Source of the DNA: an uncultured Methanosarcinales archaeon
GTDB lineage: Archaea > Nanobdellota > Nanobdellia > Woesearchaeales > DATDXC01
Direction: 5' to 3'
DNA length: 64,000 bases
Assembly: GCA_964510025.1 (NCBI GenBank)
Contig: CAZDZV010000001.1
Span: forward strand, 165,399 to 229,398
The position numbers and the translations under genes are program-made. Position 1 is the first letter of the stretch, and each line of letters starts with the position of its first letter. The notes below the pieces were generated by a model. That model ran no database searches. It was not told the origin of the DNA and worked only from the letters and a program-made list of their open reading frames with translations. Positions 7,048 through 26,156 of this stretch are shown in pieces.

Positions 7048-7180
7048 GCTCCTCCTCCATACGACGCTTAATCAAGAATTCAAGGCCATGTGATCTGTTG
7101 GCGAATACCTTTGCCTTGATTTTCTTGTCTAGCCAATCCAGAAGTTCCTGATCTATAGTTACTGTAATTCTTTCCTTCAC
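7040..7180 (-). CDS. Small ribbon-helix-helix (CopG/Arc-like) DNA-binding protein, 46 aa
   Basis: Below the ORF-track size cutoff; read by hand. GTG 7180..7178 gives VKERITVTIDQELLDWLDKKIKAKVFANRSHGLEFLIKRRMEEEHE*. This shows the beta-strand/helix/helix pattern with the typical (F/Y)xNRS motif of CopG-type RHH proteins. Its 3' end overlaps the ATG of the 1920-aa gene by 8 nt (ATGAATAA). Confidence 0.55.
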   Translation of the reverse strand: MKERITVTIDQELLDWLDKKIKAKVFANRSHGLEFLIKRRMEEEHE

Positions 7181-7447
7181 TATCGAAGCCTCATACTATA
7201 GCATATTATTACATATCTTGAATTATTTTATATTATTTAGTATGTTATATTTAAATCTTTTTATATATCTTTCTGATGCATTTTATTACTTATTATTGCA
7301 TATTTTTGATTATTATTGCTTTTTATTAATTATGAAATAAGTATTATTTAAACTTTATTATTTTCTTTAGTATGTTAAAAACTTATTATTTCTTATTATT
7401 ACATATAATGTATGTATAATTTATCCTAACCATATCAATCTCGAGTA

Positions 7448-9805: not shown

Positions 9806-9922
9806 AAAACCAAAAATTATCAGGATTACAATACCGAGTAGAAAGAAGATTGTTATTTGAGATTTTAAGGAAACCTTAATCGCCTCTTTTTTGCTAAACA
9901 GTGGACTAGAATAATTTAAATC

Positions 9923-12900: not shown

Positions 12901-12973
12901 CATAGGTATGTTCTGAAAAAGCCATAACTGAACATAGCACTCCCACCAAAATTAATGTACACAGCTTATTCAT
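9923..12973 (-). CDS. Cys-rich secreted protein (1016 aa) with CBM4/9-like carbohydrate-binding module
   Basis: Signal peptide MNKLCTLILVGVLCSVMAFS/E. NLIKNPGFEDDFDHWEH...IYYDSIEII matches the usual start and end of CBM_4_9-type modules. There are four copies of a CCGDD motif (NCCGDDFAEYY, ACCGDDMLDNS, ECCGDDVDEYN, ECCGDDSGEHYNYY). Confidence 0.8.
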   Translation of the reverse strand: MNKLCTLILVGVLCSVMAFSEHTYVEVHYDGNWYTAATCEDANTCSHLVGSEDQPEMPFCSAEGTVSIRAAAWDDILGTTTKSYPGNPIYTVDWDADEADCICYMGPDHWVVYQSGVDTGNCCGDDFAEYYCGPGYTGCSAGEVVDGDGRNLIKNPGFEDDFDHWEHKSYDDTGADESQNYETIVNSGCYSEKCVKMETENRGRQEVTSAPIFLNPGSTYTIKVRYNTTLEHSVWVTLKDFDWKDISGDIVGRTYSWQEPGKNQWQTLTKVMTVPLVDAFGDPTASHEWRFLLHGNSPSGEDSPIYYDSIEIIGSSVCECGEPGIQDVCDVEGETGCWLNISGACCGDDMLDNSCNGEIGSSIGACDQGSYFIEPDYSQIVCDCMVGQDRWNIDGEAADSAECCGDDVDEYNKSVVCQTNSSQCEASAGADCAASCIPDSSLSNHACCNHPLDCVADDVCYRDVFCNDISCPEPPGPNNPPPTVPPHETYTNSTYSFDGKRHICLNGQWTDPDEDPLYCEALFGDDLSHFNADYNSDTRFWAKSGEYSGFGEYNRTFGIQECCGDDSGEHYNYYKNPDFDDQDDDACCSAAEDCVWNSTCYPAREEPYNISDEMRRCSDGSWSIPLELKYAWYEIPDTGCKERNTCGYCDNTNQQCYLPELGGCVDPGNWTLDHFCENGSWTSRTKLVALQLLDLVEKQGSEENYTLFCDSYQNTLNYFEYERHTTIEAKAWNFLEGYNNELDIFECDDNSVYTADQDKCVNKMCVLVYHQGTNKKVAFGTSLNQPINLLNDNRHFPFILLFPDMNLNDCDNAISKPQTGIYGNYSACNPAKAWYNRKTQSVIYSNQEIDLDEPNLWQKFLIWIRNPFKGIIDFIRNTLKPPQPHYDPQEDAWDFIKYTKDFNKIYLLKDGDKEIKGLMETNISRHEGKNTFFSVKYSHFDSDICSAVEAYNINLMNDRWGVGWDRESISCYASANNHYVQYMPAPPSPISGVQHNYLGFRTWLDLTARIRTHGLE

Positions 12974-13268: not shown

Positions 13269-14363
13269 TTGCCCGCCATCATCGGGCTTGGCGGGGCAAC
13301 AAGCTACGAGGATCTGAGATATGGCAGAATAAGCAACAAATGGGTAGTATTAGGGCTGGCCTATTCTTTCTTTATGTACATTATATTAATTGCATATTAC
13401 AGCATGAATAGCAGAATTTCCGGAACATACCTCATAGAGCTAGCTACTAATTTTATATTTGCTTTAGCAGTAGGCTTTGGATTATGGTATATTAGGGTAT
13501 GGACTGCTGGAGACGGCAAGCTTTTTATTGCATATGCTGCCCTACTGCCCTTATCTGTCTATACCAAAGGCTATCAGAAATATATACCTTGTTTTGTCTT
13601 TCTAACCAACATTTTTATATCTGCAGCAGCAATAATGGTCTTCTATGTCTTATTCAAGGCAGGATTGAGAAAATGCGCCCAGGTAGCCTTGACTTTTATT
13701 AGAGAATTTTTTAAGCTGAAAAATCTCCTTGAATCTGCGATAAGCTTATTCGCTATCTATTGGATTATTGATATCCTTTTTCATTTTTTACAGCTGGGAA
13801 ACAACCTTGTATTGAGAATATCATTTACTATATTCGCTTTTTCAGCGGTCAGGGCGAAATTTGGACCGAATACAGTATACGCTACTGCAGTTATCTCTGT
13901 GTTCAGATTATTTTTCGATGACTCTGTTTTCTCTGTCGGCTTCCTTACTAATTTTCTATTTCTGATATTTGTATGGAGATTATTCAGAAGCCTAGTCAGA
14001 GGAAGCCTCTCCAAATTGGCTGAAGATATTTTTTCAAAGGATGTTCCTGTGGATAAACTGGAGGAGGGCATGGTTTTAGGTGAAATACTGCGAGAAACCA
14101 GAGGGGGGTCGCAAACTATCAACTATGGGGGAAAAGCTTATGAAAAAACATCAAAAAATTTCCTTGACTTAGAAAATTTTCTGGATGAAGAACCTGAGGG
14201 CTTAACCAAGCGGCAGATAATGAAGCTTAAAAATATGGGGATCAAGGAGATAAAGGTGAGCCAGACGATCGCATTCGCCCCCTTTATCTTTCTTGGAGCT
14301 ATCCTAACTTTAATTGCAAAAGGAAACATTTTAATATTTATCCGAAACCTCTTTCAGCTATGA
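13269..14363 (+). CDS. A24-family aspartyl membrane peptidase (prepilin/preflagellin peptidase-like) with inserted soluble domain
   Basis: Polytopic membrane protein. The first Asp motif is SYEDLRYGRISN. The second catalytic motif, WTAGDGKLFIAYAALLP, matches G-x-G-D-x-K-L of PibD/FlaK-type enzymes. The terminal helix is AFAPFIFLGAIL. The start is a TTG, the only canonical start after the in-frame TGA at 13248. Confidence 0.7.
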   Translation: MPAIIGLGGATSYEDLRYGRISNKWVVLGLAYSFFMYIILIAYYSMNSRISGTYLIELATNFIFALAVGFGLWYIRVWTAGDGKLFIAYAALLPLSVYTKGYQKYIPCFVFLTNIFISAAAIMVFYVLFKAGLRKCAQVALTFIREFFKLKNLLESAISLFAIYWIIDILFHFLQLGNNLVLRISFTIFAFSAVRAKFGPNTVYATAVISVFRLFFDDSVFSVGFLTNFLFLIFVWRLFRSLVRGSLSKLAEDIFSKDVPVDKLEEGMVLGEILRETRGGSQTINYGGKAYEKTSKNFLDLENFLDEEPEGLTKRQIMKLKNMGIKEIKVSQTIAFAPFIFLGAILTLIAKGNILIFIRNLFQL

Positions 14364-14764
14364 AAGGTTTGAAGGTTAAGGGCAATTCTGCGGAAATTAG
14401 AGTGGATCCGAAGGTCTATCCGCTGGAGGCTGTTTATTCTGCAGCCTATGTTTTTTTGGATAAGGCGTATTTTATCCTTGATGGCGATCCTAAGAAGGAG
14501 ATTATCGTCAATCTTGAAGCAAAAGAAAAAAGCATGGGTGAGAAAGTAGCAAAAGAATTTCTTAATGAACTTATCAATTACGCTGATTACATAACGAGAG
14601 CCAAGCAGACAAAAAAACTCAGGGAGACAATCCTTCAAAGGGCGCTAATAACGAATGATCCACTTATGCTGGAGGATGATGTATCTGATGATTTTATAGA
14701 TGATCCTGAAGGTATTGCAATACCATGGGAGGAAAAGTATGGTAAGGATAAAGCTAAGCAATAA
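14360..14764 (+). CDS. HxsD-like small protein (His-Xaa-Ser system accessory protein candidate)
   Basis: ATGA overlap with the peptidase gene. IRVDPKVYPLEAVYSAAYVFLDKAYFILDG...EFLNELINYADYITRAKQTKKLRETILQRAL resembles my recollection of the HxsD family (TIGR03976, LLNDYxLRE-type motif). It is adjacent to HxsB-like and HxsA-like genes. The assignment is from memory and not searched. Confidence 0.4.
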   Translation: MKGLKVKGNSAEIRVDPKVYPLEAVYSAAYVFLDKAYFILDGDPKKEIIVNLEAKEKSMGEKVAKEFLNELINYADYITRAKQTKKLRETILQRALITNDPLMLEDDVSDDFIDDPEGIAIPWEEKYGKDKAKQ

Positions 14765-14930
14765 GTTATATAGGAAAAAAGCGGTTATTAAGGCACTAAA
14801 TGATTTCAAAGAAATTATGGACGGAAGAATACTGAATGAGGATATGGATATTGAAGTTCTTCCTAAAGAGCAAATAGAGAATTTAGACAAGGAATTCTGT
14901 AATTACGTTCTGGGTCTGATGAAAGGATAA
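14739..14930 (+). CDS. Second small HxsD-like/half-size paralog (63 aa)
   Basis: MVRIKLSNKLYRKKAVIKALNDFKEIMDGRILNEDMDIEVLPKEQIENLDKEFCNYVLGLMKG has the same layout as the preceding ORF: strand, then Y...A(V/I)..A...F, then a terminal EFxNyvL motif. It overlaps the upstream gene by 26 nt and ends 1 nt before the rSAM gene. Confidence 0.35.
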   Translation: MVRIKLSNKLYRKKAVIKALNDFKEIMDGRILNEDMDIEVLPKEQIENLDKEFCNYVLGLMKG

Positions 14931-14931
14931 A

Positions 14932-16293
14932 ATGGACTATGTGATGGCGAATTATCGGTCAAAAAGATTTGGCGATAAGTATTTCGTGACTACTGATCAT
15001 GGAAGCCACTGCATACTAAATGCCAAGGAATTCTCTAAATTGAAGCATAACAAGATGGATAGAAAATTGCTGGATAAACTGGAAAATAGCGAGGTTATCC
15101 TAAATACACAGAATATGGAAGAAGCCAGGGGATTGATGAGAAAAAGGTATAATTTCCTGTTCTCAGGGGCATCTTTGCATATCATAGTTGTAACATTGAG
15201 ATGCAATATGAACTGTATCTACTGCCATGCCAGTTCCAGAAATAAAAAGGAAGAAGGTTTTGATATGGATAAGGCGACAGCTGAAAAAACGGTAGATTTC
15301 ATAATGCAGGTGCCGCAACAGGATATCACGATAGAATTCCAGGGCGGCGAGCCCCTATTGAACTGGGAGGTTGTCAAGCATATAATTGAATACAGCCAGG
15401 AAAAGGCCAAGGCATTTGATAAGAACCTTATGCTCACTCTTGTGACAAACATGTCCTATATGGACGAAAATAAGATGGATTACCTGATAGATAAGGGGGT
15501 AGCGATATGCACATCTCTAGATGGCCCCAAGAAGCTGCATGACCATAACCGAGCATCATCAGGCAGCAACTATGAACAGGTGGTAAAGTGGATAAAGAGA
15601 TTCAATGAAGAATATAAAAAAAGAGCAATAGAGAACAGAAGGATAAATGCCCTAGTTACCTTGACCAAGGAAAGCCTGAAATACTGGAAGGAGATCATAG
15701 ATGAGTACTATCATTTGGGGCTGAGGAGCATACATCTTAGATTCCTCAACAAGCTGGGTGTTGCCAAGAAGGCATGGTCTTCAATCAATTACAGTGTCGA
15801 TGATTATCTTAGGTTCTGGAAAAAATCCGTTGATTATATAGATAAAATTGGAAACCAAGAATTTGAAGAAAGAATGGTAAAGATAATGGAAAACAAGATA
15901 GCCAAGCAGCATGACCCTAATTATCTAGATTTAAGAAGCCCCTGCGGTGCAGCTATTGGCCAGCTGGCATATCACCACAATGGCGACATATATACATGTG
16001 ATGAAGCAAGGATGATTGGTGAAGACCTTTTTTTGCTAGGAAATGTGAAAAAGGACAAATATAAGGATATAGTAACAAGTGATAAGGCATGTGCAACTGT
16101 AGCTGCTTCCATAAACGACCAGTATGTCTGCAATGATTGTGTCTACAAGCCTTATTGCGGCATATGCCCCGTCTGTAATTACGCGGAAACAGGCAGCGTC
16201 ATAGGAAGAATAAGCGAGTCAGCCAGATGTAAGATCTTTAAAGAACAGTTTGATTGGGTTGTGAAAGAAAGATTTATAAATAAGAAAAACTAG
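14932..16293 (+). CDS. Radical SAM/SPASM-domain maturase, HxsB-like
   Basis: CX3CX2C motif in VVTLRCNMNCIYCHAS, plus GGEPLL. The C-terminal auxiliary-cluster region is CGAAIGQLAYHHNGDIYTCDE...CNDCVYKPYCGICPVCNY (SPASM-type). An ~85-aa N-terminal extension precedes the cluster motif. It lies directly upstream of the His-Xaa-Ser repeat peptide gene. Confidence 0.75.
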   Translation: MDYVMANYRSKRFGDKYFVTTDHGSHCILNAKEFSKLKHNKMDRKLLDKLENSEVILNTQNMEEARGLMRKRYNFLFSGASLHIIVVTLRCNMNCIYCHASSRNKKEEGFDMDKATAEKTVDFIMQVPQQDITIEFQGGEPLLNWEVVKHIIEYSQEKAKAFDKNLMLTLVTNMSYMDENKMDYLIDKGVAICTSLDGPKKLHDHNRASSGSNYEQVVKWIKRFNEEYKKRAIENRRINALVTLTKESLKYWKEIIDEYYHLGLRSIHLRFLNKLGVAKKAWSSINYSVDDYLRFWKKSVDYIDKIGNQEFEERMVKIMENKIAKQHDPNYLDLRSPCGAAIGQLAYHHNGDIYTCDEARMIGEDLFLLGNVKKDKYKDIVTSDKACATVAASINDQYVCNDCVYKPYCGICPVCNYAETGSVIGRISESARCKIFKEQFDWVVKERFINKKN

Positions 16294-16304
16294 TATTAGA
16301 TAAA

Positions 16305-16613
16305 ATGAAGATTCCTAGGTTAAAGAAGAAGATAAGGTCTTTTCTTACAAAAGAGGATGGAAAGATAAGCAAGGAAGCTTTGCTGAAGACAGGGATTCTA
16401 CTAAGCGCTGCTGCCCTAGCTTCATTGAATGCTGCTGCAGATTGCCCAGCTGACAGTTCCCTCAGCCATAATGATCATTGCAATGACCTGAGCATAGGAT
16501 ATGACGAACCTAGTGCAGTTGCGACAGCAGGGCATAATCATGGACATGGGAGCCATGCGTCACATGCAAGCCATGGATCACACGGAAGTCATGGAAGCCA
16601 CAATAGCTGGTGA
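16305..16613 (+). CDS. His-Xaa-Ser repeat peptide (HxsA-like candidate precursor), 102 aa
   Basis: It has a basic N-terminus, a hydrophobic stretch (ALLKTGILLSAAALASLNAAA), two Cys, and the C-terminal HNHGHGSHASHASHGSHGSHGSHNSW. Seven H-x-S triplets lie at nt 16545-16607, encoded with mixed His (cat/cac) and Ser (agc/tca/agt) codons. Confidence 0.7.
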   Translation: MKIPRLKKKIRSFLTKEDGKISKEALLKTGILLSAAALASLNAAADCPADSSLSHNDHCNDLSIGYDEPSAVATAGHNHGHGSHASHASHGSHGSHGSHNSW

Positions 16614-17377
16614 ATATGTTAAAAAAAAGACAGATCTACGTATCCTTAATTGTTTTATTATTGATAGTTGGGGCTGTTTTTGTCATAACTAGAATAAAGG
16701 AAATTGAAAAACCAAAAAAACCTGAAACAGAGCAATTAAAAGACTGCACAGGGATCAATGACATATATCTTCATTGTATGAGCCTCATGGCTGCATCAGA
16801 TTCTTTTTGCCAAACAGAGGAATGGGCAGTTGATACCTACGAGCTTCAAAAAGATAGAGATTTTTGCCTTTATTTTAGAAAATATAAGGAAGCAATTATA
16901 AAAAAAGACAGAGAAGTTTGCTTAGAAATCCTAGACCTTGATAATTTTGACTCATATGACTGCTCAAAGGACGAATTTGGATGCCCTGACCAGCCACTAA
17001 ATTGTTACATAGCATTGTCCGAGGATGCATCTGTTTGTGATGAGTTAGATAGGATAATAATAAAGGGATTTACCCAAGAAGAAAAAAAGGATTACTGTAA
17101 TCTTGTGTTCGAGTTAGAAAAAGAGGAAAGACATTATGAAACTGATTTATTCAAAAATAGGAATAAAGATACACAAAAAATAATGACAATGATACAATCA
17201 ATAAGAAGAAAGGATCCGGCATTGTGTGTACATATGGATAAACACTCAAGAGATTTTGTAGCTTGTCATATCTATAGCAGCCTATATACCTATGGTTCGG
17301 GAAATATAGACCAAGACTTCTGCGACCAGTTCAAGGAATGTGATCCTAAAGAAGGCATGCTACAAATTGAAGATTAG
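16610..17377 (+). CDS. Membrane-anchored Cys-rich protein (255 aa)
   Basis: The GTG start overlaps the TGA of the peptide gene; an alternative ATG lies at 16616. The N-terminal anchor is IYVSLIVLLLIVGAVFVIT. The ectodomain has 14 Cys, mostly in D/F-x-C contexts. I recognise no family. Confidence 0.6.
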   Translation: MNMLKKRQIYVSLIVLLLIVGAVFVITRIKEIEKPKKPETEQLKDCTGINDIYLHCMSLMAASDSFCQTEEWAVDTYELQKDRDFCLYFRKYKEAIIKKDREVCLEILDLDNFDSYDCSKDEFGCPDQPLNCYIALSEDASVCDELDRIIIKGFTQEEKKDYCNLVFELEKEERHYETDLFKNRNKDTQKIMTMIQSIRRKDPALCVHMDKHSRDFVACHIYSSLYTYGSGNIDQDFCDQFKECDPKEGMLQIED

Positions 17378-19227
17378 AGACCTTCGATAAATATATTAAA
17401 TAAATTATCTAGCTTTAGATTCATTTTGTCTTCTTTTGAAGAATAATCTTCAGGTTCATCATCCAGAAGGCCTAACTGCCCAAAATCAGATATATCCATT
17501 ACATTGGCTATCCTCTTTTGCGGTTGATTTTGCATAATGAATTTATTATTTGAATAAATATCGCCATTACAGTCAATGCACCAGCCCCTTGTAAACAAAT
17601 AGGAGTCCTGCCAAACCTCCTTGTTGATAACATCTATTTCTTTATCCACCAAAAAATCTCTAATTTTTTGCATTTCGCTTTCAAGTACCTTAAAATCTTT
17701 TATGTGCCAATCATCATAAAAAGCTGGTAGAAAATTGAATTTCCTAAAGCCCTTATTATACAAATATTTGAAATTTTCAAAGAAATTACCGCAATTGTTA
17801 TTAGACACAACCATATTTAGAGAAACATAATCCACAAAAGGTGTTAGGACCTTAATAACCTTGCTAGATTTTTTTCCCCTATTTTTGGTCTGCCATTTAT
17901 CTTTACCGTCAACACTTACCCTTAGTTCAACATTATTGAGCCTAAAATAATTAATTATCTCTTTTGTAAGCAATACCCCATTTGTGGTTAACACAAATTT
18001 AGTATTGTCATTTTTGGAAGTGGCATAGTGGATTATTCTCTTAACCAGATCTAATTCCAATAAGGGTTCCCCCCCAAAAAACCTAACATAGTAAAAAGGG
18101 GATTTTAAATTCAATAATAGATCTAGACTCTTTTTTGCGGTTTTAAAAGATATAGATTCTTCTTTTTTTACAGTTATACAATATTTGCAATCAAGATTGC
18201 ATTTATATGTAACAACCAAAACCAACACCGGCAACCTATTAGATATCTTAAACAACTTAAGAAATTCCTGACTTATTTCCTTTTTTTCCCTTCCCTTAAA
18301 GTAGGCCTTATATAGTCCCTTACAAGATTTGCTTAAAATGCATTTTTTACATAAAGCAAATTTATGCTTAAAGGATTCTATGTTATCCTTTAATTTACCA
18401 GTATCTTCCTTATTCAGATCAGTAGTGCTAGTACTGTATCCTTTATCCAATGCAGCAAACAAACCAAGTGTTTCTATCCTGCCATCTTCACCAATATACA
18501 AGCTTGAGCTTATATCCTGAAAATGTATTTTTTTTGTATTAAGAATGCTATCTCTGAAAATACATAATGGGAAATCTTCCACATCTATCGTATCCACTAA
18601 CTCTTTAGCCTTGAATAAAAAGTAATTTAAAGAAGTTAACTCTAATAAAGACGGGGAGTACTTATTGTAATCATCTTTCAACCTACCAAAAGGTCCCAGC
18701 ATCAAGATTCCCAATTCTCTTATCTTCAGGGCATCTACCAAAAACAAATAGTCGTCTAACTGCTTAATATTGCCGGACCAGATGGGGATGTTTAAACATA
18801 CAGTTTCATCAGCTTCCAAAAGATTTTTTATACCCTTGATGGTCTGCTTGAAGCTGCCCCGAGTTCTTGTCCAGGATTCATGTATCTTTTCAGTTGCCCC
18901 AAATAGTGTTATATTGAAGCTTGAAACCGCCCCTTTAACTTTTTTGATATATCCTTTATAAGAAAAAAACCTTCCGTTCGAGGTTAACACTGTCTTATAG
19001 CCCAATTCTTTAGCGATCGCCAAAATCTCCAACAGATCCGGATGAAGTGTTATTTCACCCCCAATTGGATGAAATATCCGATAGCCTTGTTTTACTCCCT
19101 CCTTTAATTCTTCTTTTATAGAACTTAGGCTCCTGTATTCATTTTTTTGGATATTTGGATCCACAGCGCAACCAATACAATTATTATTACAAGAATTATT
19201 GACATTAAGGTATAATATCTTTCTCAT
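17374..19227 (-). CDS. Fusion of two radical SAM domains (617 aa)
   Basis: Domain 1 has NNSCNNNCIGCAV, IGGEIT, HESWTRTRGSFKQTIKGIKNL, and CKKCILSKSCKGLYKAY. Domain 2 has TYKCNLDCKYCI (aa 343-350) and FGGEPLL. ATGA-type 4-nt overlap with the upstream gene. Confidence 0.8.
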   Translation of the reverse strand: MRKILYLNVNNSCNNNCIGCAVDPNIQKNEYRSLSSIKEELKEGVKQGYRIFHPIGGEITLHPDLLEILAIAKELGYKTVLTSNGRFFSYKGYIKKVKGAVSSFNITLFGATEKIHESWTRTRGSFKQTIKGIKNLLEADETVCLNIPIWSGNIKQLDDYLFLVDALKIRELGILMLGPFGRLKDDYNKYSPSLLELTSLNYFLFKAKELVDTIDVEDFPLCIFRDSILNTKKIHFQDISSSLYIGEDGRIETLGLFAALDKGYSTSTTDLNKEDTGKLKDNIESFKHKFALCKKCILSKSCKGLYKAYFKGREKKEISQEFLKLFKISNRLPVLVLVVTYKCNLDCKYCITVKKEESISFKTAKKSLDLLLNLKSPFYYVRFFGGEPLLELDLVKRIIHYATSKNDNTKFVLTTNGVLLTKEIINYFRLNNVELRVSVDGKDKWQTKNRGKKSSKVIKVLTPFVDYVSLNMVVSNNNCGNFFENFKYLYNKGFRKFNFLPAFYDDWHIKDFKVLESEMQKIRDFLVDKEIDVINKEVWQDSYLFTRGWCIDCNGDIYSNNKFIMQNQPQKRIANVMDISDFGQLGLLDDEPEDYSSKEDKMNLKLDNLFNIFIEGL

Positions 19228-20222
19228 CTTAAGCTTCTTTTCTGCCTTAAGCTATTTATCTCTTTTTCTATCTGAGATGCCCCTACTAATTTTATGTAAT
19301 CACAAAATATACCTTCACAAAGCCTTATCCTTGGACACCCCTCACAGGATTTTATTTTTATTCTGTATCTTTTAAACTTATTTTCTGCAGATTCTGATTG
19401 CCTTTGAAACGTAAGATTAGAATTAACGCAGAAATTAAATTCCCTTGCAGCAAATAGGCTGTAATTCTCTATATTTCCTTCCTTGTCTTTGTATATTTTT
19501 CCACTAGTATCAAATATATGCACATCGCCTCTATCCATAAAATCCTGGCTGAATATACACAAAGGAAAATCCTCAATCTCTATATTTAAAAATGATTTAA
19601 ATAATGAAAGCTGATCTTCTAACACTAAAAGCTTTTCTAGAGGCACAAATAACTTGTAATAATTTCTTCTAGCGCGCCCAAGAGGTACAAGATTAAAAAG
19701 ATCTATGTCCCTAATTGCCATTTTTTCCAATAATTCCATAGTCTCTTTGACCTTATCAAAACTTTTCTTCCAAACCAAATAGTTTATACCTACCTTTTTT
19801 GTAAATGACCTCAAGTTGCCTATACCTTGAATAGTCTGTCTAAAACTACCTGGTGTTCTTGTCCAAGATTCATGTATATCTTTATTGGGGCCACAAAGAG
19901 TGATGTTAAAGTGCGTTATTCCTGCATCAACCATTTTTTTTGTAAAACTAGGGTAAGAAAACATCCTTCCATTAGAGGTGATATAAACTTCATCATACAG
20001 TTCCTTTGCCTTCTTAAGAATCTGAAAAATATTATCCTGTATTGTAACTTCCCCTCCGGCGAGATGAAGATTTTTGTATCCTTTCTCAGCCCCAAGCTCC
20101 AAATCCCTGAATATACCGCTTATATCCCTACCATTTTTGGGCTTATTGAGATTATTATCCGCACAACCCAGACAATTATTATTGCATCCATTCTCTGTTG
20201 AGACAAAAAATATTTTCTTCAT
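19224..20222 (-). CDS. Radical SAM protein (332 aa)
   Basis: Motifs are ENGCNNNCLGCAD, AGGEVT, HESWTRTPGSFRQTIQGIGNL, and the C-terminal CEGCPRIRLCEGIFCDY. It is a paralog of domain 1 of the 617-aa protein. Confidence 0.8.
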   Translation of the reverse strand: MKKIFFVSTENGCNNNCLGCADNNLNKPKNGRDISGIFRDLELGAEKGYKNLHLAGGEVTIQDNIFQILKKAKELYDEVYITSNGRMFSYPSFTKKMVDAGITHFNITLCGPNKDIHESWTRTPGSFRQTIQGIGNLRSFTKKVGINYLVWKKSFDKVKETMELLEKMAIRDIDLFNLVPLGRARRNYYKLFVPLEKLLVLEDQLSLFKSFLNIEIEDFPLCIFSQDFMDRGDVHIFDTSGKIYKDKEGNIENYSLFAAREFNFCVNSNLTFQRQSESAENKFKRYRIKIKSCEGCPRIRLCEGIFCDYIKLVGASQIEKEINSLRQKRSLR

Positions 20223-22909
20223 CTTATTTTCATCTTGGATTGACTTTTTCTCAAATGGGGTTCTAGTTCATCAAAACCGTAAATTTTCGCATAATCTACA
20301 AATATGCCCTCACAATTTGCATTATAAATACATTTATTGCACCGCATACTTTTTGTTTTTCTAGTTCTGCAAATATATCTTAAAATTTCTTTTTTATCTT
20401 TGCTAAATTCCTCATTATAATCTTGTTTTACATGCTTAATACCGCCCCCATTAATTATACATTGGGGGATATTCCTTACAATAACTTCTTTGTTTAACTC
20501 CTTAAAAATCCCTTTTAGACTAGACAATTTTGGAACAAGCAACCTGTAATCTTCTATATCGTAAAAGGGCTCGATAAGATTAAGCATTATTTTCTTTCTT
20601 GAGTGTTTAAGCCTTTCTTTTACTTCTAATAAATTAAACTTATTTAAATTTAGTGTCTCTATTTCTTTATCATCTTTTTTTTTGTTATAAATTATTCTTT
20701 TGTATCTGCTGCACACCCCTTCCATAAAACAAAAACTGCATAAATTTTTGGAACAGTCAAGAAAGTAATCCCAATAATCTGCACAATCGTAAAACTCACT
20801 TAAATAATAAAAGATATCTAACTTATCCGGAATAAATTGGGGGAATGCTTCAAAATAGTACGGTTCTAAGAACTCAAAAGAAACCTTTAAATCGAACTTT
20901 TTTGAAATAAGAAAAATTTTATCCAAATTTCTTCTAAATTTTTTGTAGTCGATTTTGAACCTTCTGTAATCATTTAAAGCTGCCCCTTTTGGCAAAACTC
21001 CCTGTAGATTAAATCTTTTTATGCCCCTTTTGGATAAATCCTGCATTAACAAAGGAATAGAATCAAAATTCTTTTGCATACAGACAGACTGCACCATTAC
21101 ACTTACAGCTTCATGTCCCATGATATTATCAACAGCTCTTAGTATTTGTTTATAGCCGCCCTTAATATTTGTCAGATCGTCATTTACTTCTTTATAGCCA
21201 TGAACTGAAATTGTAAATTTTTTCAAACCCTTTTTTATTACCTCATCAGTAACTTTCTTGATAGAAAAAAGTCTTCCATTGGTTACTATAGATAATTCAA
21301 ATCCTTTTTTTTGAAAAAGGGTCATTAGTTTCAGCAACACATTATAGTAAAGTGTTGGTTCGCCTCCTGTAAAGGATATTTCTTTAAAATTTGAAGACAA
21401 AGCTTCCTTCACTTGGTCTTTCAGCTGCATATTTCCGACCTGTAATTTTTCCCTGGCAAAACAGGAAATACAATGATTATTGCACTTATCACCCAACTTG
21501 AGGTTATAACATTGATTCCTCTGCTTAACGTTCATGACTAATTTTTCAAATTTTCTAGCAATTCCTTCTAAATCAAAGAAAAAAAGTGAATATATAAACC
21601 GTTGTTTAGGTCCCTTTGGCAAAAATTTCAATTTATTCTCCATAATCTCTATTTTCCCCATTTTTTCAAGATCTGAAATCTCTTTCTTAAAATCTTCGGC
21701 CAGCTCCATATTGAATCGTTTCCTGTAATCTTCCAGGTCAATGGCTTCATCATAAGCAAGCCCATTCATAACATAACGTAATTTTTGCTCTTTTCTGCTT
21801 ATCTCAATTCCATCGAATACATAGCCATTCTGCCTGTAACGACATGAATTAAATATATATGAACATGAGAATTCACCTAAAGCAAAACAAGAGCCCTCAT
21901 TTTGGGAATCATAAGAATATGTAAATTTCATCTTTTTATAGTTTGTTGAAGGAAAAAACCAAGGAGAGGCTGTTCTTGGGTTGTCTAGCGTTGGTCTGTA
22001 CAAACCATAATTAAGGGGCATTTTGCCTTTTATAATTTTATTGTACAGACTCCTGATTTTATTATTAAGCTCCTTATAAAATGCCTCCTCATCAGAGTAA
22101 TAGTAATTTTGGATATACTCAGTCGTTGGTTGTAGTGGATATAATGATATGAAATCTGGTTCCAGATCCGCAATTTTTAAGATGCTGTCCAAAATAGTCT
22201 TCACGCCATCCTTATACAACCCAATAATTAAGTCTACATTAATTTCTTCAAATCCTAATTTTTTAATATCGCTCACCACTTTTTTTATTTGTGCGTATTC
22301 CTGATATCCCCGATTCTCAGATTTTAAAACGGATTTATCAAGTGTTTGCACACCGAGGGAAATTCTATTAAAATCAAAATCTCTTATCAGTCTCAATTTT
22401 TCAGAAGTAATGCTATCTGGATTACATTCAAACGTTTTTTCCCCTTTTGTCTCAAAATTAAAATTTTCAAAAATAGCCGCTAATATCTTTTTTATCTGTT
22501 CCATTCTAAGAATAGAAGGTGTTCCTCCACCGATATATAAACTCTTAAATCTTATATCCTGAAAAGTCTTGCCAAATTGGGACATTTGTTTGGATAATTT
22601 TTTGATATAGATTATAATTTCTTCTTCAGACCCCAATTTTTTAGAGGGGTACATACAATAATTACACTTGCCCCTACAAAAAGGGATATGCACATAAAAA
22701 TTAATATTATTTTTAGCCTTTCCCTCCCTTATCTTGTTTATGTGCTCACTCCATTTTTGTTTTATGTCCCCCAAAGAATAATTCTGTGTTTCTTTAATTA
22801 GATCAAATAAATCAGGTAACAAAAAATTATTTTTATAGCCCCCCTCTTTAATTAAGCCTGTGAATCTATTAAAAAAGTCTAATTTTTGATTAAAAAGAGC
22901 AATATTCAT
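20219..22909 (-). CDS. HemN-like radical SAM domain fused to a second radical SAM domain (896 aa)
   Basis: The N-terminal half has YVHIPFCRGKCNYCMY and LYIGGGTPS, the coproporphyrinogen-III-oxidase-like HemN/HemZ pattern. The C-terminal half has LGDKCNNHCISCFA, TGGEPT, then CSFCFMEGVC and CNKCIYNANCEGIFVDY. Confidence 0.8.
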   Translation of the reverse strand: MNIALFNQKLDFFNRFTGLIKEGGYKNNFLLPDLFDLIKETQNYSLGDIKQKWSEHINKIREGKAKNNINFYVHIPFCRGKCNYCMYPSKKLGSEEEIIIYIKKLSKQMSQFGKTFQDIRFKSLYIGGGTPSILRMEQIKKILAAIFENFNFETKGEKTFECNPDSITSEKLRLIRDFDFNRISLGVQTLDKSVLKSENRGYQEYAQIKKVVSDIKKLGFEEINVDLIIGLYKDGVKTILDSILKIADLEPDFISLYPLQPTTEYIQNYYYSDEEAFYKELNNKIRSLYNKIIKGKMPLNYGLYRPTLDNPRTASPWFFPSTNYKKMKFTYSYDSQNEGSCFALGEFSCSYIFNSCRYRQNGYVFDGIEISRKEQKLRYVMNGLAYDEAIDLEDYRKRFNMELAEDFKKEISDLEKMGKIEIMENKLKFLPKGPKQRFIYSLFFFDLEGIARKFEKLVMNVKQRNQCYNLKLGDKCNNHCISCFAREKLQVGNMQLKDQVKEALSSNFKEISFTGGEPTLYYNVLLKLMTLFQKKGFELSIVTNGRLFSIKKVTDEVIKKGLKKFTISVHGYKEVNDDLTNIKGGYKQILRAVDNIMGHEAVSVMVQSVCMQKNFDSIPLLMQDLSKRGIKRFNLQGVLPKGAALNDYRRFKIDYKKFRRNLDKIFLISKKFDLKVSFEFLEPYYFEAFPQFIPDKLDIFYYLSEFYDCADYWDYFLDCSKNLCSFCFMEGVCSRYKRIIYNKKKDDKEIETLNLNKFNLLEVKERLKHSRKKIMLNLIEPFYDIEDYRLLVPKLSSLKGIFKELNKEVIVRNIPQCIINGGGIKHVKQDYNEEFSKDKKEILRYICRTRKTKSMRCNKCIYNANCEGIFVDYAKIYGFDELEPHLRKSQSKMKIR

Positions 22910-22961
22910 TTCTAATAAATTTAAGCTTTAAATTTATTTCCTCACCGACATTACTTATCCC

Positions 22962-23879
22962 TTACGCTATTGATCTAAGTTTAACATATGTTTTCCAATA
23001 GCCTTCGCATATCTCATCATATTTACAGGTACCGCATTTACCAATCTTTGTTCTTCCTATTTTCCTTCGATTTTCTTCAGCATACCTATTTACAAAGTCT
23101 GGAGCTAAATGCTCTGTATGGAATTTTTTGACTTCATGTAGCTCACTTATCCGGTGATGGTATTTTTCACCAACAAAACATAAGGGATAATACCTTATAT
23201 GCCAATGACTTATTTTCCTTTCATTTCCAAACTCCAGTATTTTATCAACATAAGTAGAAACTTCTTCATAAGTTGGGACCAATTCAAAAAATCTTTTTTT
23301 TGGGCCCCCGTGTGTTGGGTCGACAAAAATAAACTCAGAATTATCAATGCCCAAACCATAAATAAATTTTCCAATTTCTAATAGATCTTTATAGTTTTGT
23401 TTTACTATTGTGGTATTTGACCCTATATTCTTAAATCCGATATTCTGAAGATTTTTTATTCCTTGTATTAGTTGCTGAAAGCTTCCCGGAACTTGCGTTA
23501 ACCTATCATGTAACTCTGGGTTGTGACCATGTATGGAAAAAACAACATGGTTTACACCTTCATCGATTATCTTTTTTGCAAATTCCTTATTTGAAAACAT
23601 CCTACCATTAGTTGCAAACATAATTGTCTCGAAACCGAACTTCTTTGCAAATGACACAATTTCAAAAATATCTCTCCTTATTGTTGGTTCCCCACCAATA
23701 AGTTCCAAGTATCTACTTCCATGTTTTTTCGCCCTCAAAATATCCTCCTTTATTTCTAGTGTTGGTTTGTCCAATACTTTTTCTCTTTTATCCTCATTAC
23801 AACAAAATATGCATTTATTATTGCAGGTATAACCCATGAATACTACTGTCTTTTTAGTTTTCATTTCTGAATAAATCAA
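22962..23879 (-). CDS. Radical SAM protein (305 aa)
   Basis: Motifs are GYTCNNKCIFCCN, IGGEPT, HDRLTQVPGSFQQLIQGIKNL and CGTCKYDEICEGYWKTY. It overlaps the upstream gene end by 26 nt; an alternative start is M6 at 23864. Confidence 0.8.
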   Translation of the reverse strand: MIYSEMKTKKTVVFMGYTCNNKCIFCCNEDKREKVLDKPTLEIKEDILRAKKHGSRYLELIGGEPTIRRDIFEIVSFAKKFGFETIMFATNGRMFSNKEFAKKIIDEGVNHVVFSIHGHNPELHDRLTQVPGSFQQLIQGIKNLQNIGFKNIGSNTTIVKQNYKDLLEIGKFIYGLGIDNSEFIFVDPTHGGPKKRFFELVPTYEEVSTYVDKILEFGNERKISHWHIRYYPLCFVGEKYHHRISELHEVKKFHTEHLAPDFVNRYAEENRRKIGRTKIGKCGTCKYDEICEGYWKTYVKLRSIA

Positions 23880-25242
23880 GTTCTTTTAACTTAGATATTA
23901 TCAAAGATTTCAGCCTTTTGGTTTCTTTACAATTCTCAGAACACGGGTAATATAAAAGTGTCAGTTCCTTACCATTTAAAGGGAATCTTGTTTTAGAAAT
24001 TAGTTTTTTCTCTTCTTGCTGACTAGTGAAGCTTTTTTTAGAAAACTTTCTAACACAGCATTCAGGATAGCCATACAAACTTCCCAATTCAAGATTAAAT
24101 TTTAAGTTGTCTCTTTCATTGAAAGTACCCGAATTCAAAATATTTGTCAGTTCACAAGCAGATTCTGCCTTCCGTATATCCTGGGATAGAAAGAGGTAAT
24201 CTCCCTCTTTAATCCTTGGTATTTTTTCAAGCCCGACAATAGCATCTTCGACTTTTTTACCTTTCAACTCTATCCTCAAAACTTCTTTCAGACCCAACAA
24301 AAAATATATTTTATCCAAATAAAAGTCATCATTCTTAGGTATTCTTTTAATTCTTTGGACAATTTCTTTCTTATGCAAAACATATTCTATGGGTCTAAAC
24401 TCATCTCCGCCAAAAATCCTCAAATAGCTCCCCCATACACCTGAGCATTTTTTCTTATAAGCACAGTCTTTACACTTTTTAAGGAAAGTGACTTCTGAAT
24501 TCTCTACTGTCAGCCCTTTTGATAACCCAAAAAGACTGCTTGGCAAAACACAATTAGGGAAATGATAAAGTTCCACTTTATAGCCATTTTTAATCAACCT
24601 TTTTATTGGATTTTCTAAAACTTTAGCTAATTCTGTTAGTTTTATGGCAACCAATCTCTCATTCTTTTTAGCTTGTTCCGTTAGCTTAGGGTTCATTATT
24701 ATTACTTTCACAAAGTCTTTACTGTCAAAATTATTAATAAGAAAATCAGCTATTTGATCAAAGTAACTATAGTTAAGTCTGTGCAATAATATCCTAATCT
24801 CCAAAGGCACATTATTCTTAATCAAGTTTTTTATCCCCCGAATCTTATACCTAAAACTATTGGGGGTTCTTGTGATCGAATCGTGTATCTTAGCATTTGG
24901 CCCGTATAAAGTAGTCACAATCTTCAAGTGCGGTATTTTTGATATCTTTTTAGCAAAGTCTTTATAATAAAAGGATTGAGAATTTGTCAAAAGCCCTACC
25001 TCTTCAGGATTCTTTTGGGAGATATATTCTAATATCCTTAACAAATCCTTTCTTAATGTCGGTTCGCCCCCGTTGAGTTCTATGTGCTTTGATATTTTAA
25101 GAATATCATTAACTTCCCTTAGGATATCCTTAAAGGTAGGATTTTCTTTATTTTTTCTCCTAGGAACAGGACACGAAATACAATTATCATTGCAGTCATA
25201 TATGACAGGAACAAAAGTCTTGAAATCTTTCTTATTTTTCAT
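23854..25242 (-). CDS. Radical SAM protein with extra C-terminal Cys-containing domain (462 aa)
   Basis: Motifs are IYDCNDNCISCPV, NGGEPT, HDSITRTPNSFRYKIRGIKNL and CKDCAYKKKCSGVWGSY. An additional ~170-aa tail contains LYGYPECCVRKF and YYPCSENCKE. Confidence 0.8.
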   Translation of the reverse strand: MKNKKDFKTFVPVIYDCNDNCISCPVPRRKNKENPTFKDILREVNDILKISKHIELNGGEPTLRKDLLRILEYISQKNPEEVGLLTNSQSFYYKDFAKKISKIPHLKIVTTLYGPNAKIHDSITRTPNSFRYKIRGIKNLIKNNVPLEIRILLHRLNYSYFDQIADFLINNFDSKDFVKVIIMNPKLTEQAKKNERLVAIKLTELAKVLENPIKRLIKNGYKVELYHFPNCVLPSSLFGLSKGLTVENSEVTFLKKCKDCAYKKKCSGVWGSYLRIFGGDEFRPIEYVLHKKEIVQRIKRIPKNDDFYLDKIYFLLGLKEVLRIELKGKKVEDAIVGLEKIPRIKEGDYLFLSQDIRKAESACELTNILNSGTFNERDNLKFNLELGSLYGYPECCVRKFSKKSFTSQQEEKKLISKTRFPLNGKELTLLYYPCSENCKETKRLKSLIISKLKELDLFRNEN

Positions 25243-26156
25243 TCTTTGATAGCCCTAAACTCCTTATCCCCAAATTTTTCAGGATACTCCTTCCAAGGCC
25301 CCTCACACATATTATCGTATTTGCATTCTCTACACTGCGAAAATTTGGATTTTCCTTCTTTCACCCTAGTATATTTATAATCATCAACAACCACATCAAA
25401 ATCTATTATTTTTGTTTCTGGTATAAATCTCTCTGAGACATAATCCTCAAATCCATGCATCATACAATAAGGCATTCCTTCTGCCATAACATTAATCCCT
25501 GCATCGATCCCTATTTGAAGGCCCCTATGAACATAGGGTGCAACTAGACTCATTTTAGGCACCATTTCATCATAATATTTATGGGCGTTCCCTATTGGGT
25601 GAACAAATGCAAATTGAAACTGATCAACCCCCAATTTGACAAGTAATTTTGCTATCTCTGGAAGATGTTTGTAATTTGGTTTTACCACAACTGAGTTAGT
25701 TATAATCTTTTGGTCAAGGAGCCTTAAATTCTTTATTGCTTGTATTGTCTGTCTGAAGCTGCCGGGACTTCTGGTCAAGAAATCATGAACATTTGGATTA
25801 TGTCCATGCACTGCGGGAGAAAATTCATTTGCACCAGAGGCTATTAATTTCTTTGTGAATCCCATATTTGACAGCATCCTGCAGTTCGACTGAATCTGTA
25901 TTATGCCATAGCCTATATCCCTAGCATACCCCACCAGATCAAACAAATCTGGCCTTATTGTAACTTCTCCTCCTGTGAAGACAATATCCTCGCAGTTGGC
26001 TCTAGCCTTTGAAATCTTCTCCTTTACCTCTGCTGTTGGTAAATTACCCAGGTGTTTTTTATGAGCCTGAACACAGAATCTGCAGCTATTATTGCATACA
26101 AAGCCTGTTTTAAGGTCTAATCTCTTGCCCCCCATAGACAGAAGAGAAGAATTCAT
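25239..26156 (-). CDS. Radical SAM protein (305 aa), first gene of the rSAM operon
   Basis: Motifs are GFVCNNSCRFCVQ, TGGEVT, HDFLTRSPGSFRQTIQAIKNL and CRECKYDNMCEGPWKEY. It is a paralog of 22962..23879. It starts only 17 nt downstream of the Rpp30 stop. Confidence 0.8.
   Translation of the reverse strand: MNSSLLSMGGKRLDLKTGFVCNNSCRFCVQAHKKHLGNLPTAEVKEKISKARANCEDIVFTGGEVTIRPDLFDLVGYARDIGYGIIQIQSNCRMLSNMGFTKKLIASGANEFSPAVHGHNPNVHDFLTRSPGSFRQTIQAIKNLRLLDQKIITNSVVVKPNYKHLPEIAKLLVKLGVDQFQFAFVHPIGNAHKYYDEMVPKMSLVAPYVHRGLQIGIDAGINVMAEGMPYCMMHGFEDYVSERFIPETKIIDFDVVVDDYKYTRVKEGKSKFSQCRECKYDNMCEGPWKEYPEKFGDKEFRAIKE

Follow-up and report, generated by a model that had tools for sequence, protein, structure and literature searches.

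The closest described relatives of the locus considered here are the HXS systems of bacteria. Work with the HXS system of Escherichia coli has shown that a modification of +8 Da, dependent on radical S-adenosylmethionine (SAM) chemistry, arises within an SHRSS repeat (Li et al., Nat Commun 2026, PMC13128918). HxsC binds HxsD in this system, and the matured periplasmic HxsA blocks the entry of phage DNA (PMC13128918). According to the same work, 99.7% of HXS systems occur in Pseudomonadota, with the gene order D-B-C-A and one HxsC, and an antiphage function is known only for the E. coli and Klebsiella-type systems; the paper makes no mention of archaea, SPASM domains or auxiliary clusters (PMC13128918). 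The HxsA3/HxsA4-type variants are defined only as NCBIfam models (NF038309, NF038313, NF038315 for HxsD_rel and NF038332 for HxsC4), and a literature search found no experimental study of them, nor any paper on archaeal Hxs systems or on radical-SAM batteries in DPANN archaea. Here, we describe a 64,000-nucleotide (nt) stretch of DNA, referred to throughout as the window, from an uncultured archaeon of the Woesearchaeales (GenBank assembly GCA_964510025.1, contig CAZDZV010000001.1, positions 165,399 to 229,398), in which a battery of six consecutive radical-SAM genes converges on a core of Hxs genes. We put at roughly 0.65 the probability that the battery is part of an archaeal HxsA3/A4-type HXS system, in which several specialised HxsC-type enzymes would modify an exported peptide of H-x-S (HxS) repeats.

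The battery consists of six minus-strand open reading frames (ORFs) that together cover exactly positions 17374-26156 and encode proteins of 305, 462, 305, 896, 332 and 617 amino acids (aa), named g1 to g6 by order of transcription (Table 1). Four of the five junctions are overlaps (4, 26, 4 and 4 nt), while g3 and g4 are separated by a gap of 52 nt. The six genes are tightly coupled and free of frameshifts and internal stops; together they probably make up a single compact operon for radical-SAM enzymes of the HxsC family. Pfam recognises a Radical_SAM domain in all six proteins, two each in g4 and g6, together with HemN_C in g4 (28.9 bits against a threshold of 24) and DUF483 at the end of g2 (31.3 bits). 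The ORF listing and a regular-expression check confirmed the eight CX3CX2C motifs that a preliminary description of this DNA had counted in six back-to-back genes. Six of the eight follow the pattern CN[ND][NSKH]CxxC, as had also been stated (CNNSCRFC, CNDNCISC, CNNKCIFC, CNNHCISC, CNNNCLGC and CNNNCIGC), and this element, CN[ND]xCxxC, is predicted to bind the SAM cluster in each HxsC-like domain. The two exceptions are again those originally named, CRGKCNYC in the HemN-like half of g4 and CNLDCKYC in the C-terminal PapB/HxsB-like domain of g6, which has no Pfam SPASM match.

A second hallmark of the battery is a C-terminal tail of the form CX2CX5C-x-G-ΦΦ-x2-Y (Φ, aromatic or aliphatic), and all six tails quoted earlier were found, one per HxsC-like domain. 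When the whole window was translated in six frames, CX2CX5CxG, the core of the tail, appeared six times, as did the restricted SAM motif, always within the battery; residue-shuffled versions of the six proteins gave an expectation of 0.003 tails by chance. A middle block, H[ED]x[WLI]TR[TS]PxSF[RK]xxIxGIxNL, had been reported from five domains plus one variant, and here the count needs correction to four, one variant and one divergent copy. Only g2 and g5 carry the exact pattern, g1 (G to A) and g6 (P to R) are one residue off, g3 is the variant that had been quoted and g4 is strongly diverged. Two further elements had been overlooked. The first is a fourth conserved Cys in a P-x-C context, located 26-71 aa before every tail, and the second is a seventh CX2CX5C in g4, CSFCFMEGVC, which lacks the Gly. 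The C-terminal parts of g1, g2, g5 and g6 can be aligned with aa 746-896 of g4, so that positions 20222-20670 of the window represent a partial duplicate of the C-terminal sub-domain; the module of g4 is therefore partly duplicated, and g4 may possess two auxiliary-cluster modules within one HxsC-like domain.

The identity of the family emerges from curated models and from alignment. For g1, g2, g3 and g5, the best NCBIfam match is HxsC (TIGR03977) or its short form HxsC4 (NF038332), and the HxsC-like halves of g4 and g6 match both models as well. The paralogue nearest to canonical HxsC is g2, which matches TIGR03977 over model positions 31-290 of 292 with 168.7 bits. When the six domains were aligned with HxsC from the annotated hxsDBCA operons of an Aeromonas plasmid (L005) and a Nostoc plasmid (L006), the bacterial proteins displayed C[DN]N[FY]CxMC, HDYxVQxxGAFxxTIxGxxxL and a P/Q-x-C cysteine in register with the window domains, and their C-terminal element, CDDCASKAVCCGFF or CKACVEKDHCGGFF, was in register with the window tail. 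Because all four elements coincide in this way, the motif once described as private to the battery is instead the signature of the HxsC family (C-[ND]-N-x-C-x-x-C, HDxxxxxxG[AS]Fxx[TI]IxG, P/Q-x-C and CX2CX5C-x-G-ΦΦ), which the window domains bear, with a weak middle block in g4. In addition to the annotated HxsC of Aeromonas and Nostoc, the tail is found in 67 domains of related loci and in 147 of the 150 best family representatives (241 copies, 199 of them ending in Tyr); relative to bacterial HxsC, the terminal aromatic-x-x-Tyr is an addition of the archaeal copies.

The family is also a large one. A profile built from the six window domains and searched against 1.84 billion representative proteins retrieved 3,163 clusters at E <= 1e-30, and 110 of the best family representatives contain two to four radical-SAM motifs per polypeptide. 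Named members that were looked up came from Nanoarchaeota and one Omnitrophota genome and were labelled only "radical SAM protein". PADLOC 2023, which holds no HXS model, gave generic pVip-level similarity only, and IMG/VR contigs contained no relatives of g1, with one weak generic match, so that a viral origin found no support there.

With HxsC and HxsC4 among their best matches and an alignment running from end to end, the six domains represent paralogous copies of a single type of enzyme, as had been proposed. An opposing view would hold that chance has brought together radical-SAM enzymes of housekeeping pathways (MoaA, heme or tRNA modification) that have no relationship to each other. 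Such a view could draw on weak matches to MoaA, AhbD, NirJ and viperin models and on the HemN-like N-terminal part of g4, which scores 179 bits against the STM4012 family (cut-off 380), 137.6 against HemW (205.4) and 146.6 against HemN (325), with a HemZ-type match also below its cut-off. The MoaA, AhbD, NirJ and viperin scores fall far under the curated cut-offs, among them 325 for archaeal MoaA (observed, 44-89 bits), 500 for AhbD and 180 for prokaryotic viperin, and motifs peculiar to the family link the six domains to one another and to HxsC, making a chance assembly exceedingly improbable. A housekeeping assignment, named in the preliminary description as the result that would speak against it, was rejected for the MoaA, heme and viperin families, every curated cut-off having been missed by a wide margin.

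The likely purpose of the extra cysteines can be approached through g1. Across 48 g1 orthologues (57-67% identical), C14/C18/C21 and C224/C268/C271/C277 are invariant, as is the E-G-x-W-x-E-Y that comes next, leaving just four conserved cysteines outside the SAM motif. An AlphaFold2 model of g1 (pLDDT 95.1, pTM 0.91) places C224 after the last barrel strand; residues 241-250 then form a beta-hairpin and residues 253-261 a helix, which leads into the loop with CX2CX5C. Foldseek against the PDB ranked SkfB, a Twitch enzyme, at the top, then BlsE, GDGT-MAS and SuiB, and then viperins, DesII, MoaA and NifB; SuiB, which has a SPASM domain, gave a TM-score of 0.69 over more than 320 alignment columns. 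In a PDB sequence search with the g1 profile, the radical-SAM core alone aligned (BlsE, GDGT-MAS and SkfB), and the tail had no sequence relative with a solved structure. Pfam SPASM was likewise without a match in g1-g6 at E <= 0.01, while HxsB of the window has one; the tail CRECKYDNMCEGP resembles the CX2CX5C part of the SPASM motif in that HxsB, CNDCVYKPYCGIC. The suggestion that the tail is a truncated SPASM/Twitch site thus fares well on its Twitch-like layout and on the top-ranking folds (SkfB, BlsE and SuiB), and finds no support from Pfam.

Comparison with Twitch/SPASM enzymes (SkfB 6efn, BlsE 7vob, SuiB 5v1q and the anSME type) sharpens this picture. The partial TIM barrel is the same, and it is followed in the same order by a Cys, a beta-hairpin, a helix and a Cys-rich loop. 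SPASM domains use seven or eight cysteines (CX9-15GX4C...CX2CX5CX3C...C) to hold two auxiliary clusters, whereas the four of the window domains are enough for one. The arrangement of one upstream Cys plus CX2CX5C, then G-Φ-W-x-x-Y, is specific to the HxsC family and unlike Twitch/SPASM enzymes. From sequence and model together, a single four-Cys auxiliary [4Fe-4S] site (P-x-C plus CX2CX5C-x-G) in a reduced Twitch-like module is likely.

Immediately beside the battery, and convergent to it, lies a plus-strand operon encoding an A24 peptidase, HxsD, an HxsD-like protein, HxsB, an HxsA-type peptide and a Cys-rich protein. HxsB, HxsD and HxsD_rel all score above their curated cut-offs. The HxsA-type peptide consists of a leader (KKKIxSFLTKEDGKISKE), a hydrophobic helix, a Cys/His core, seven H-x-S repeats and an SW end; Pfam finds no domain in it, peptidoglycan-binding domain included. 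Its 83 HxsA-like homologues, none informatively named, include 77 with at least three HxS repeats (median 7 and maximum 25 among these). The leader motif FLxxE[ED]G is present in 69 of the 83, and most have aromatic ends (SW, QW or SY). The same core can be recognised on a plasmid of the Clostridial genus Haloimpatiens (L021), which encodes HxsA3, HxsD, HxsD_rel, an A24-like membrane protein, a canonical HxsC and HxsB, and the core of the window therefore belongs to the HxsA3/A4-type variant.

Two readings of precursor cleavage can be offered. A conserved K-[TA]-G before the hydrophobic helix of HxsA would suit an A24 (class III) peptidase, and an AxA-like site after the helix would suit signal peptidase I; judged from sequence, the two are equally good. 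The A24 peptidase is a candidate dedicated leader peptidase for HxsA, because it is syntenic with hxsD in DPANN loci and has a homologue inside the Clostridial HxsA3 operon.

HxsA-type genes vary considerably in form among the related loci. In L003 (about 6860-7812, minus strand), the gene next downstream of hxsB is a giant of the HxsA type, with an unbroken run of more than 60 H-x-S repeats, and L012 contains two tandem HxsA copies. A homologue in L060 (16087-16890, minus strand) carries a Hint/intein-like domain (PT-HINT, Hint_2 and Intein_splicing) between the HxS repeats and a terminal GGWC, as if its C-terminus were released or ligated via protein splicing. On the far side of the core in the window, positions 1285-12973 (minus strand) hold three very large ORFs of 1920, 785 and 1016 aa. 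The last of these (9923-12973) encodes a Cys-rich protein of secreted type, with an N-terminal signal-like sequence and no Pfam match, and homologues of this protein adjoin the Hxs core in L007, L010, L012, L014 and L016. The Cys-rich 255-aa protein at the end of the core operon has no Pfam or NCBIfam match, and a weak homologue occupies the same position in L014.

Why a single locus should contain six HxsC-like domains is a question that paralogy can address. Identity among the domains is 23-37%, and identity to bacterial HxsC 21-29%, with g5 and the N-terminal domain of g6 sharing 36%. Neighbour joining was applied to 71 HxsC-like domains with HxsB as the root, and the resulting tree, calculated without support values, contains a tight g1 clade with one member per locus and a g3 clade as its sister, a g2 clade beside canonical bacterial HxsC, a clade of g5 with the g6 N-terminal domain, and a grouping of the g4 C-terminal domain with a domain of L075. 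Given that canonical systems need just one HxsC, that the number of HxsC-like genes in related loci ranges from 0 to more than 10 and that the middle block of g4 has diverged, it might be argued that one HxsC was duplicated in tandem and that only one of the six copies still functions, the others being redundant or in decay. Yet the SAM cysteines, the GGE motif, the P-x-C cysteine and the tail are intact in all six, and the ORFs are unbroken and tightly coupled, as described above. Moreover, orthologues of g1, g2, g3 and g5 in another genome are 41-70% identical, against the 23-37% that separates the paralogues. Since orthologues are so much closer than paralogues, the six are old, conserved and non-redundant paralogues as judged from their sequences, not recent or decaying duplicates, and the idea of decay is very unlikely.

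The distribution of the battery and of the core was surveyed in related loci, anchored on HxsB or on g1, with flanks limited to 10 kb and annotated by BLASTP against the window proteins. Homologues of g1 number more than 1,400, the top 120 being 57-68% identical, and those with names come from Woesearchaeota, Nanoarchaeota, Aenigmatarchaeota and one Thorarchaeota genome. The Hxs core recurs across at least 10 Woesearchaeota/Nanoarchaeota loci. It is complete (A24 peptidase-HxsD-HxsD-like-HxsB-HxsA) in L007, L009, L010, L012, L014, L015, L017 and L060 and partial in L013 and L016, and the HxsD-like protein is kept between hxsD and hxsB in at least nine related loci. L014 is nearly syntenic with the window, its orthologues of g1, g2, g3 and g5 being 61, 60, 70 and 41% identical, and it encodes the C-terminal domain of g6 as a separate gene (40% identical). 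Batteries of comparable size are found elsewhere, with six consecutive genes and nine radical-SAM motifs in L001 and at least 10 radical-SAM genes in a row in L075. Such an iterated array had been thought unusual for a small genome, a view that its recurrence in Woesearchaeota and Nanoarchaeota, up to at least 10 genes in a row, does not bear out.

Fusions vary between loci as well. The g1 orthologue of L014 (18036-19586, minus strand) is fused to an APH/fructosamine-kinase-like domain, and the slot of g4 in that locus (14400-16301, minus strand) is occupied by a phosphoenolpyruvate-utilising enzyme (PPDK_N plus a mobile phospho-His domain). The g2 orthologue of L009 (8689-10401, minus strand) carries a DUF364 fusion, for which the annotation is putative heavy-metal chelation. 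DUF483, in which GYPECC and YPCSxxC are conserved, forms part of g2 in the window and exists as a separate gene beside g1 orthologues in L003 (10891-11856) and L017 (2889-3728). The DUF483 of g2 had no sequence match in the PDB and one database homologue, its AlphaFold2 model was unusable (pLDDT 42), and the papers retrieved for DUF483 dealt solely with DUF483x families that are unrelated to it.

An Hxs component is present in about half of the g1-anchored loci: hxsD/hxsB are divergent to g1 in L003, L064, L065 and L067, on the same strand upstream in L075 and nearby in L060, and HxS-repeat genes directly adjoin g1 in L069 and L076. These observations bear upon an alternative in which the battery, or at least its g1 and g3 clades, acts on a substrate other than HxsA and merely neighbours the Hxs core. 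Candidates for this substrate would include a small molecule, a glycan, a lipid or the Cys-rich secreted proteins (encoded at 16610-17377 and 9923-12973). In its favour, g1 orthologues in L001, L002, L068, L071 and L074 have no hxsB, hxsD or hxsA within reach and often adjoin genes for GT4 glycosyltransferases, carbamoyltransferase, B12-radical SAM or PMT_2 proteins, and g1 orthologues fused to methyltransferase or kinase domains exist. Moreover, the nearest solved folds include small-molecule enzymes, neither Pfam nor alignment detects a peptide-recognition domain in g1-g6, and the 57-68% identity of the g1 clade across phyla fits a conserved non-peptide substrate. Other observations speak against it. 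Hxs genes do stand beside or divergent to g1 in the six loci just named for these arrangements (four with hxsD/hxsB divergent and two with HxS-repeat genes adjoining), and the family contains canonical HxsC, whose genetic target is HxsA. Flanks of only 10 kb make missing Hxs genes weak evidence, and the HxS repeats are themselves highly conserved and could explain the conservation of g1. On balance, we regard a substrate other than HxsA as unlikely, if a serious contender.

Returning to the assignment of the battery to an archaeal HxsA3/A4-type system, several findings do weigh against it. None of g1-g6 reaches the cut-off of HxsC (267.9) or HxsC4 (500); the best HxsC score is the 168.7 bits of g2, against 308.6 bits for the genuine HxsC of L021, and HxsC4 scores other than those of g1 (165.9) and g3 (151.2) are 78-88 bits, so that the enzymes of the window are not HxsC4 proper. 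Canonical HxsC has an N-terminal domain of about 100 aa that is missing from all six window domains, which begin no more than 20 aa before the SAM motif, whereas bacterial HxsC has 100-120 extra residues there; by BLASTP, this bacterial domain has no similarity to HxsD or the HxsD-like protein of the window. In L015 the Hxs core is present, but the stretch from hxsA to the RNase P p30 gene contains nothing HxsC-like. The other half or so of the g1-anchored loci have no Hxs component within reach, containing instead glycosyltransferases, B12-radical SAM, PMT_2 or further HxsC-like genes. Several of the closest solved folds (BlsE, DesII, viperin and GDGT-MAS) act on small-molecule or lipid substrates. 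Finally, the Hxs core sits in a stable chromosomal neighbourhood of housekeeping genes, unlike the mobile HXS islands of bacteria.

If the archaeal HXS reading is adopted, a working sequence of events can be proposed. A ribosomal HxsA precursor would be held in the cytoplasm by HxsD, the HxsD-like protein and HxsB. Having no counterpart to the N-terminal domain of bacterial HxsC, the archaeal enzymes probably share these adaptors (HxsD/HxsD-like/HxsB) in trans. Each of the six paralogues would then install a radical-mediated modification, different in site or type, with the HemN-like, PapB-like and DUF483 modules assisting; both HxsA as the common substrate and the division of labour among paralogues are what we infer from gene content and sequence. 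The product would be exported, its leader cut off by the A24 peptidase or by signal peptidase, and the modified His/Ser-rich peptide displayed at the cell surface. By analogy with E. coli, its role may be to block the entry of viral DNA, which is the least secure and a speculative step. The defence analogy is weakened because the core sits in a stable chromosomal setting, and that housekeeping setting fits a constitutive surface structure equally well. More tentatively still, the expanded DPANN HXS system, with its shared core, A24 peptidase and variable battery of adaptor-less HxsC enzymes, could conceivably build a heavily and combinatorially modified surface peptide, rich in His and Ser, that would keep viral genomes out of the cell, bind metal or mediate contact with a host.

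The expression and setting of the battery offer a few further clues. The true start of g1 is probably M8 at 26135, because a TATA-like element, TTATATAA, lies about 25 nt upstream of M8 and a database entry has 298 aa; that of g3 is probably M6 at 23864, by alignment with orthologues. The position of TTATATAA suggests that transcription of the battery starts from a separate promoter and that the mRNA is leaderless. A scan for sigma-70 promoters and intrinsic terminators, which is ill-suited to an archaeon, gave counts not above those of shuffled sequence. Upstream of g1 lie the RNase P p30 gene and then genes for RNase Z, Hjc, TFE and TrmB, all of them archaeal housekeeping genes. The guanine-plus-cytosine content is 0.31-0.35 over the battery (window positions 18000-26000) versus 0.40-0.44 in the upstream flank, and this drop, together with the missing battery of L015, suggests that the battery is a variable island at a fixed chromosomal site. 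Coordinates of the individual features are collected in Table 1.

Table 1. Features of the Hxs core and of the radical-SAM battery, given as positions in the 64,000-nt window.
Feature	Positions	Strand	Details
A24-family (prepilin-type) membrane aspartyl peptidase	13269..14363	+	Arc_PepC 24.5 bits (23.4); Peptidase_A24 25.3 (below 26.5)
HxsD	14360..14764	+	TIGR03976 52.5 bits vs 50
HxsD-like (HxsD_rel)	14700..14930	+	NF038315 49.1 bits vs 41; probable start at internal ATG 14739
HxsB, radical SAM/SPASM maturase	14932..16293	+	TIGR03978 431.3 bits vs 370; Pfam SPASM
HxsA-type precursor, 102 aa	16305..16613	+	NF038313 HxsA4 52.8 bits, just below cut-off 55
Cys-rich 255-aa protein, N-terminal membrane helix	16610..17377	+	start overlaps hxsA stop by 4 nt
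TATA-box-like element (archaeal), TTATATAA	26158..26165	-	about 25 nt upstream of g1 M8 ATG, from sequence
g1, HxsC-like radical SAM, most conserved paralogue	25239..26156	-	305 aa; HxsC4 165.9 bits, HxsC 92 bits
g1 SAM motif	26073-26096	-	
g1 P-x-C Cys	25464-25466	-	
g1 tail	25284-25334	-	
g2, HxsC-like domain + DUF483 fusion	23854..25242	-	
g2 HxsC-like domain	24388-25242	-	
g2 DUF483	23857-24387	-	
g2 tail	24424-24474	-	
g3, HxsC-like radical SAM, sister clade of g1	22962..23879	-	HxsC4 151.2, HxsC 102.1 bits
g3 tail	22986-23036	-	
g4, HemN-like radical SAM with HemN_C + HxsC-like fusion	20219..22909	-	
g4 HemN-like half	21548-22909	-	
g4 HxsC-like half	20222-21547	-	HxsC 85.2 bits for aa 459-677
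g4 tail without Gly	20711-20740	-	
g4 tail	20291-20341	-	
g5, HxsC-like radical SAM	19224..20222	-	HxsC 88.8 bits
g5 tail	19296-19346	-	
g6, HxsC-like + short PapB/HxsB-like radical-SAM fusion	17374..19227	-	
g6 HxsC-like domain	18268-19227	-	HxsC 103.5 bits
g6 tail	18301-18351	-	
g6 C-terminal PapB/HxsB-like domain	17377-18267	-	

HXS was given a function only in 2026, when its radical-SAM enzymes were shown to mature an effector that stops phage DNA from entering the cell, and its chemistry (+8 Da on the HxS repeat) and the role of the extra HxsC cysteines are the problems that it poses. The locus most likely represents an expanded archaeal variant of this known system. The HxsC fold with its four-Cys tail marks a large family, comprising more than 3,000 clusters when grouped at 50% identity, that has expanded massively in genome-reduced DPANN archaea, with nine radical-SAM domains in 11 kb at this locus, and in the archaeal versions the catalytic domain has parted from the N-terminal domain and a candidate dedicated A24 peptidase has been added. 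With six specialised paralogues to compare, all acting around a single short peptide, the HxsC reaction could come within reach of experiment, and such a comparison could show on what a symbiotic archaeon, whose DNA amounts to about 1 Mb, spends more than 1% of its genome. If the proposal of a combinatorially modified surface peptide were true, this would be the first radical-SAM-matured surface effector in archaea, made by a battery that would diversify like a conflict system while its g1 clade stays nearly fixed.

How, then, does the locus compare with known Hxs systems? The Gammaproteobacterial HXS systems (TIGR03976-TIGR03979) resemble the window in possessing HxsB, HxsD and a precursor with a predicted N-terminal export signal and H-x-S repeats, and the SAM motif, the middle block, the P-x-C cysteine and the CX2CX5CxG tail are common to the HxsC-type domains of both. 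In contrast to these systems, the window encodes six HxsC-like domains instead of one, with HemN-like, PapB-like and DUF483 fusions added, as well as a second HxsD-like protein and an A24 peptidase, and its HxsA is about 100 aa long. The arrangement also differs, in that the battery is convergent to the core instead of following the order D-B-C-A, the host is an archaeon and the chromosomal setting is stable. The HxsA3-type operon of the Haloimpatiens plasmid resembles the window in pairing HxsD with HxsD_rel, in carrying a homologous A24-like membrane protein inside the operon and in encoding a precursor with the leader xFLxxEEGxIxK followed by a hydrophobic helix. Unlike the window, it relies on a single canonical HxsC (308.6 bits) that has the N-terminal domain.

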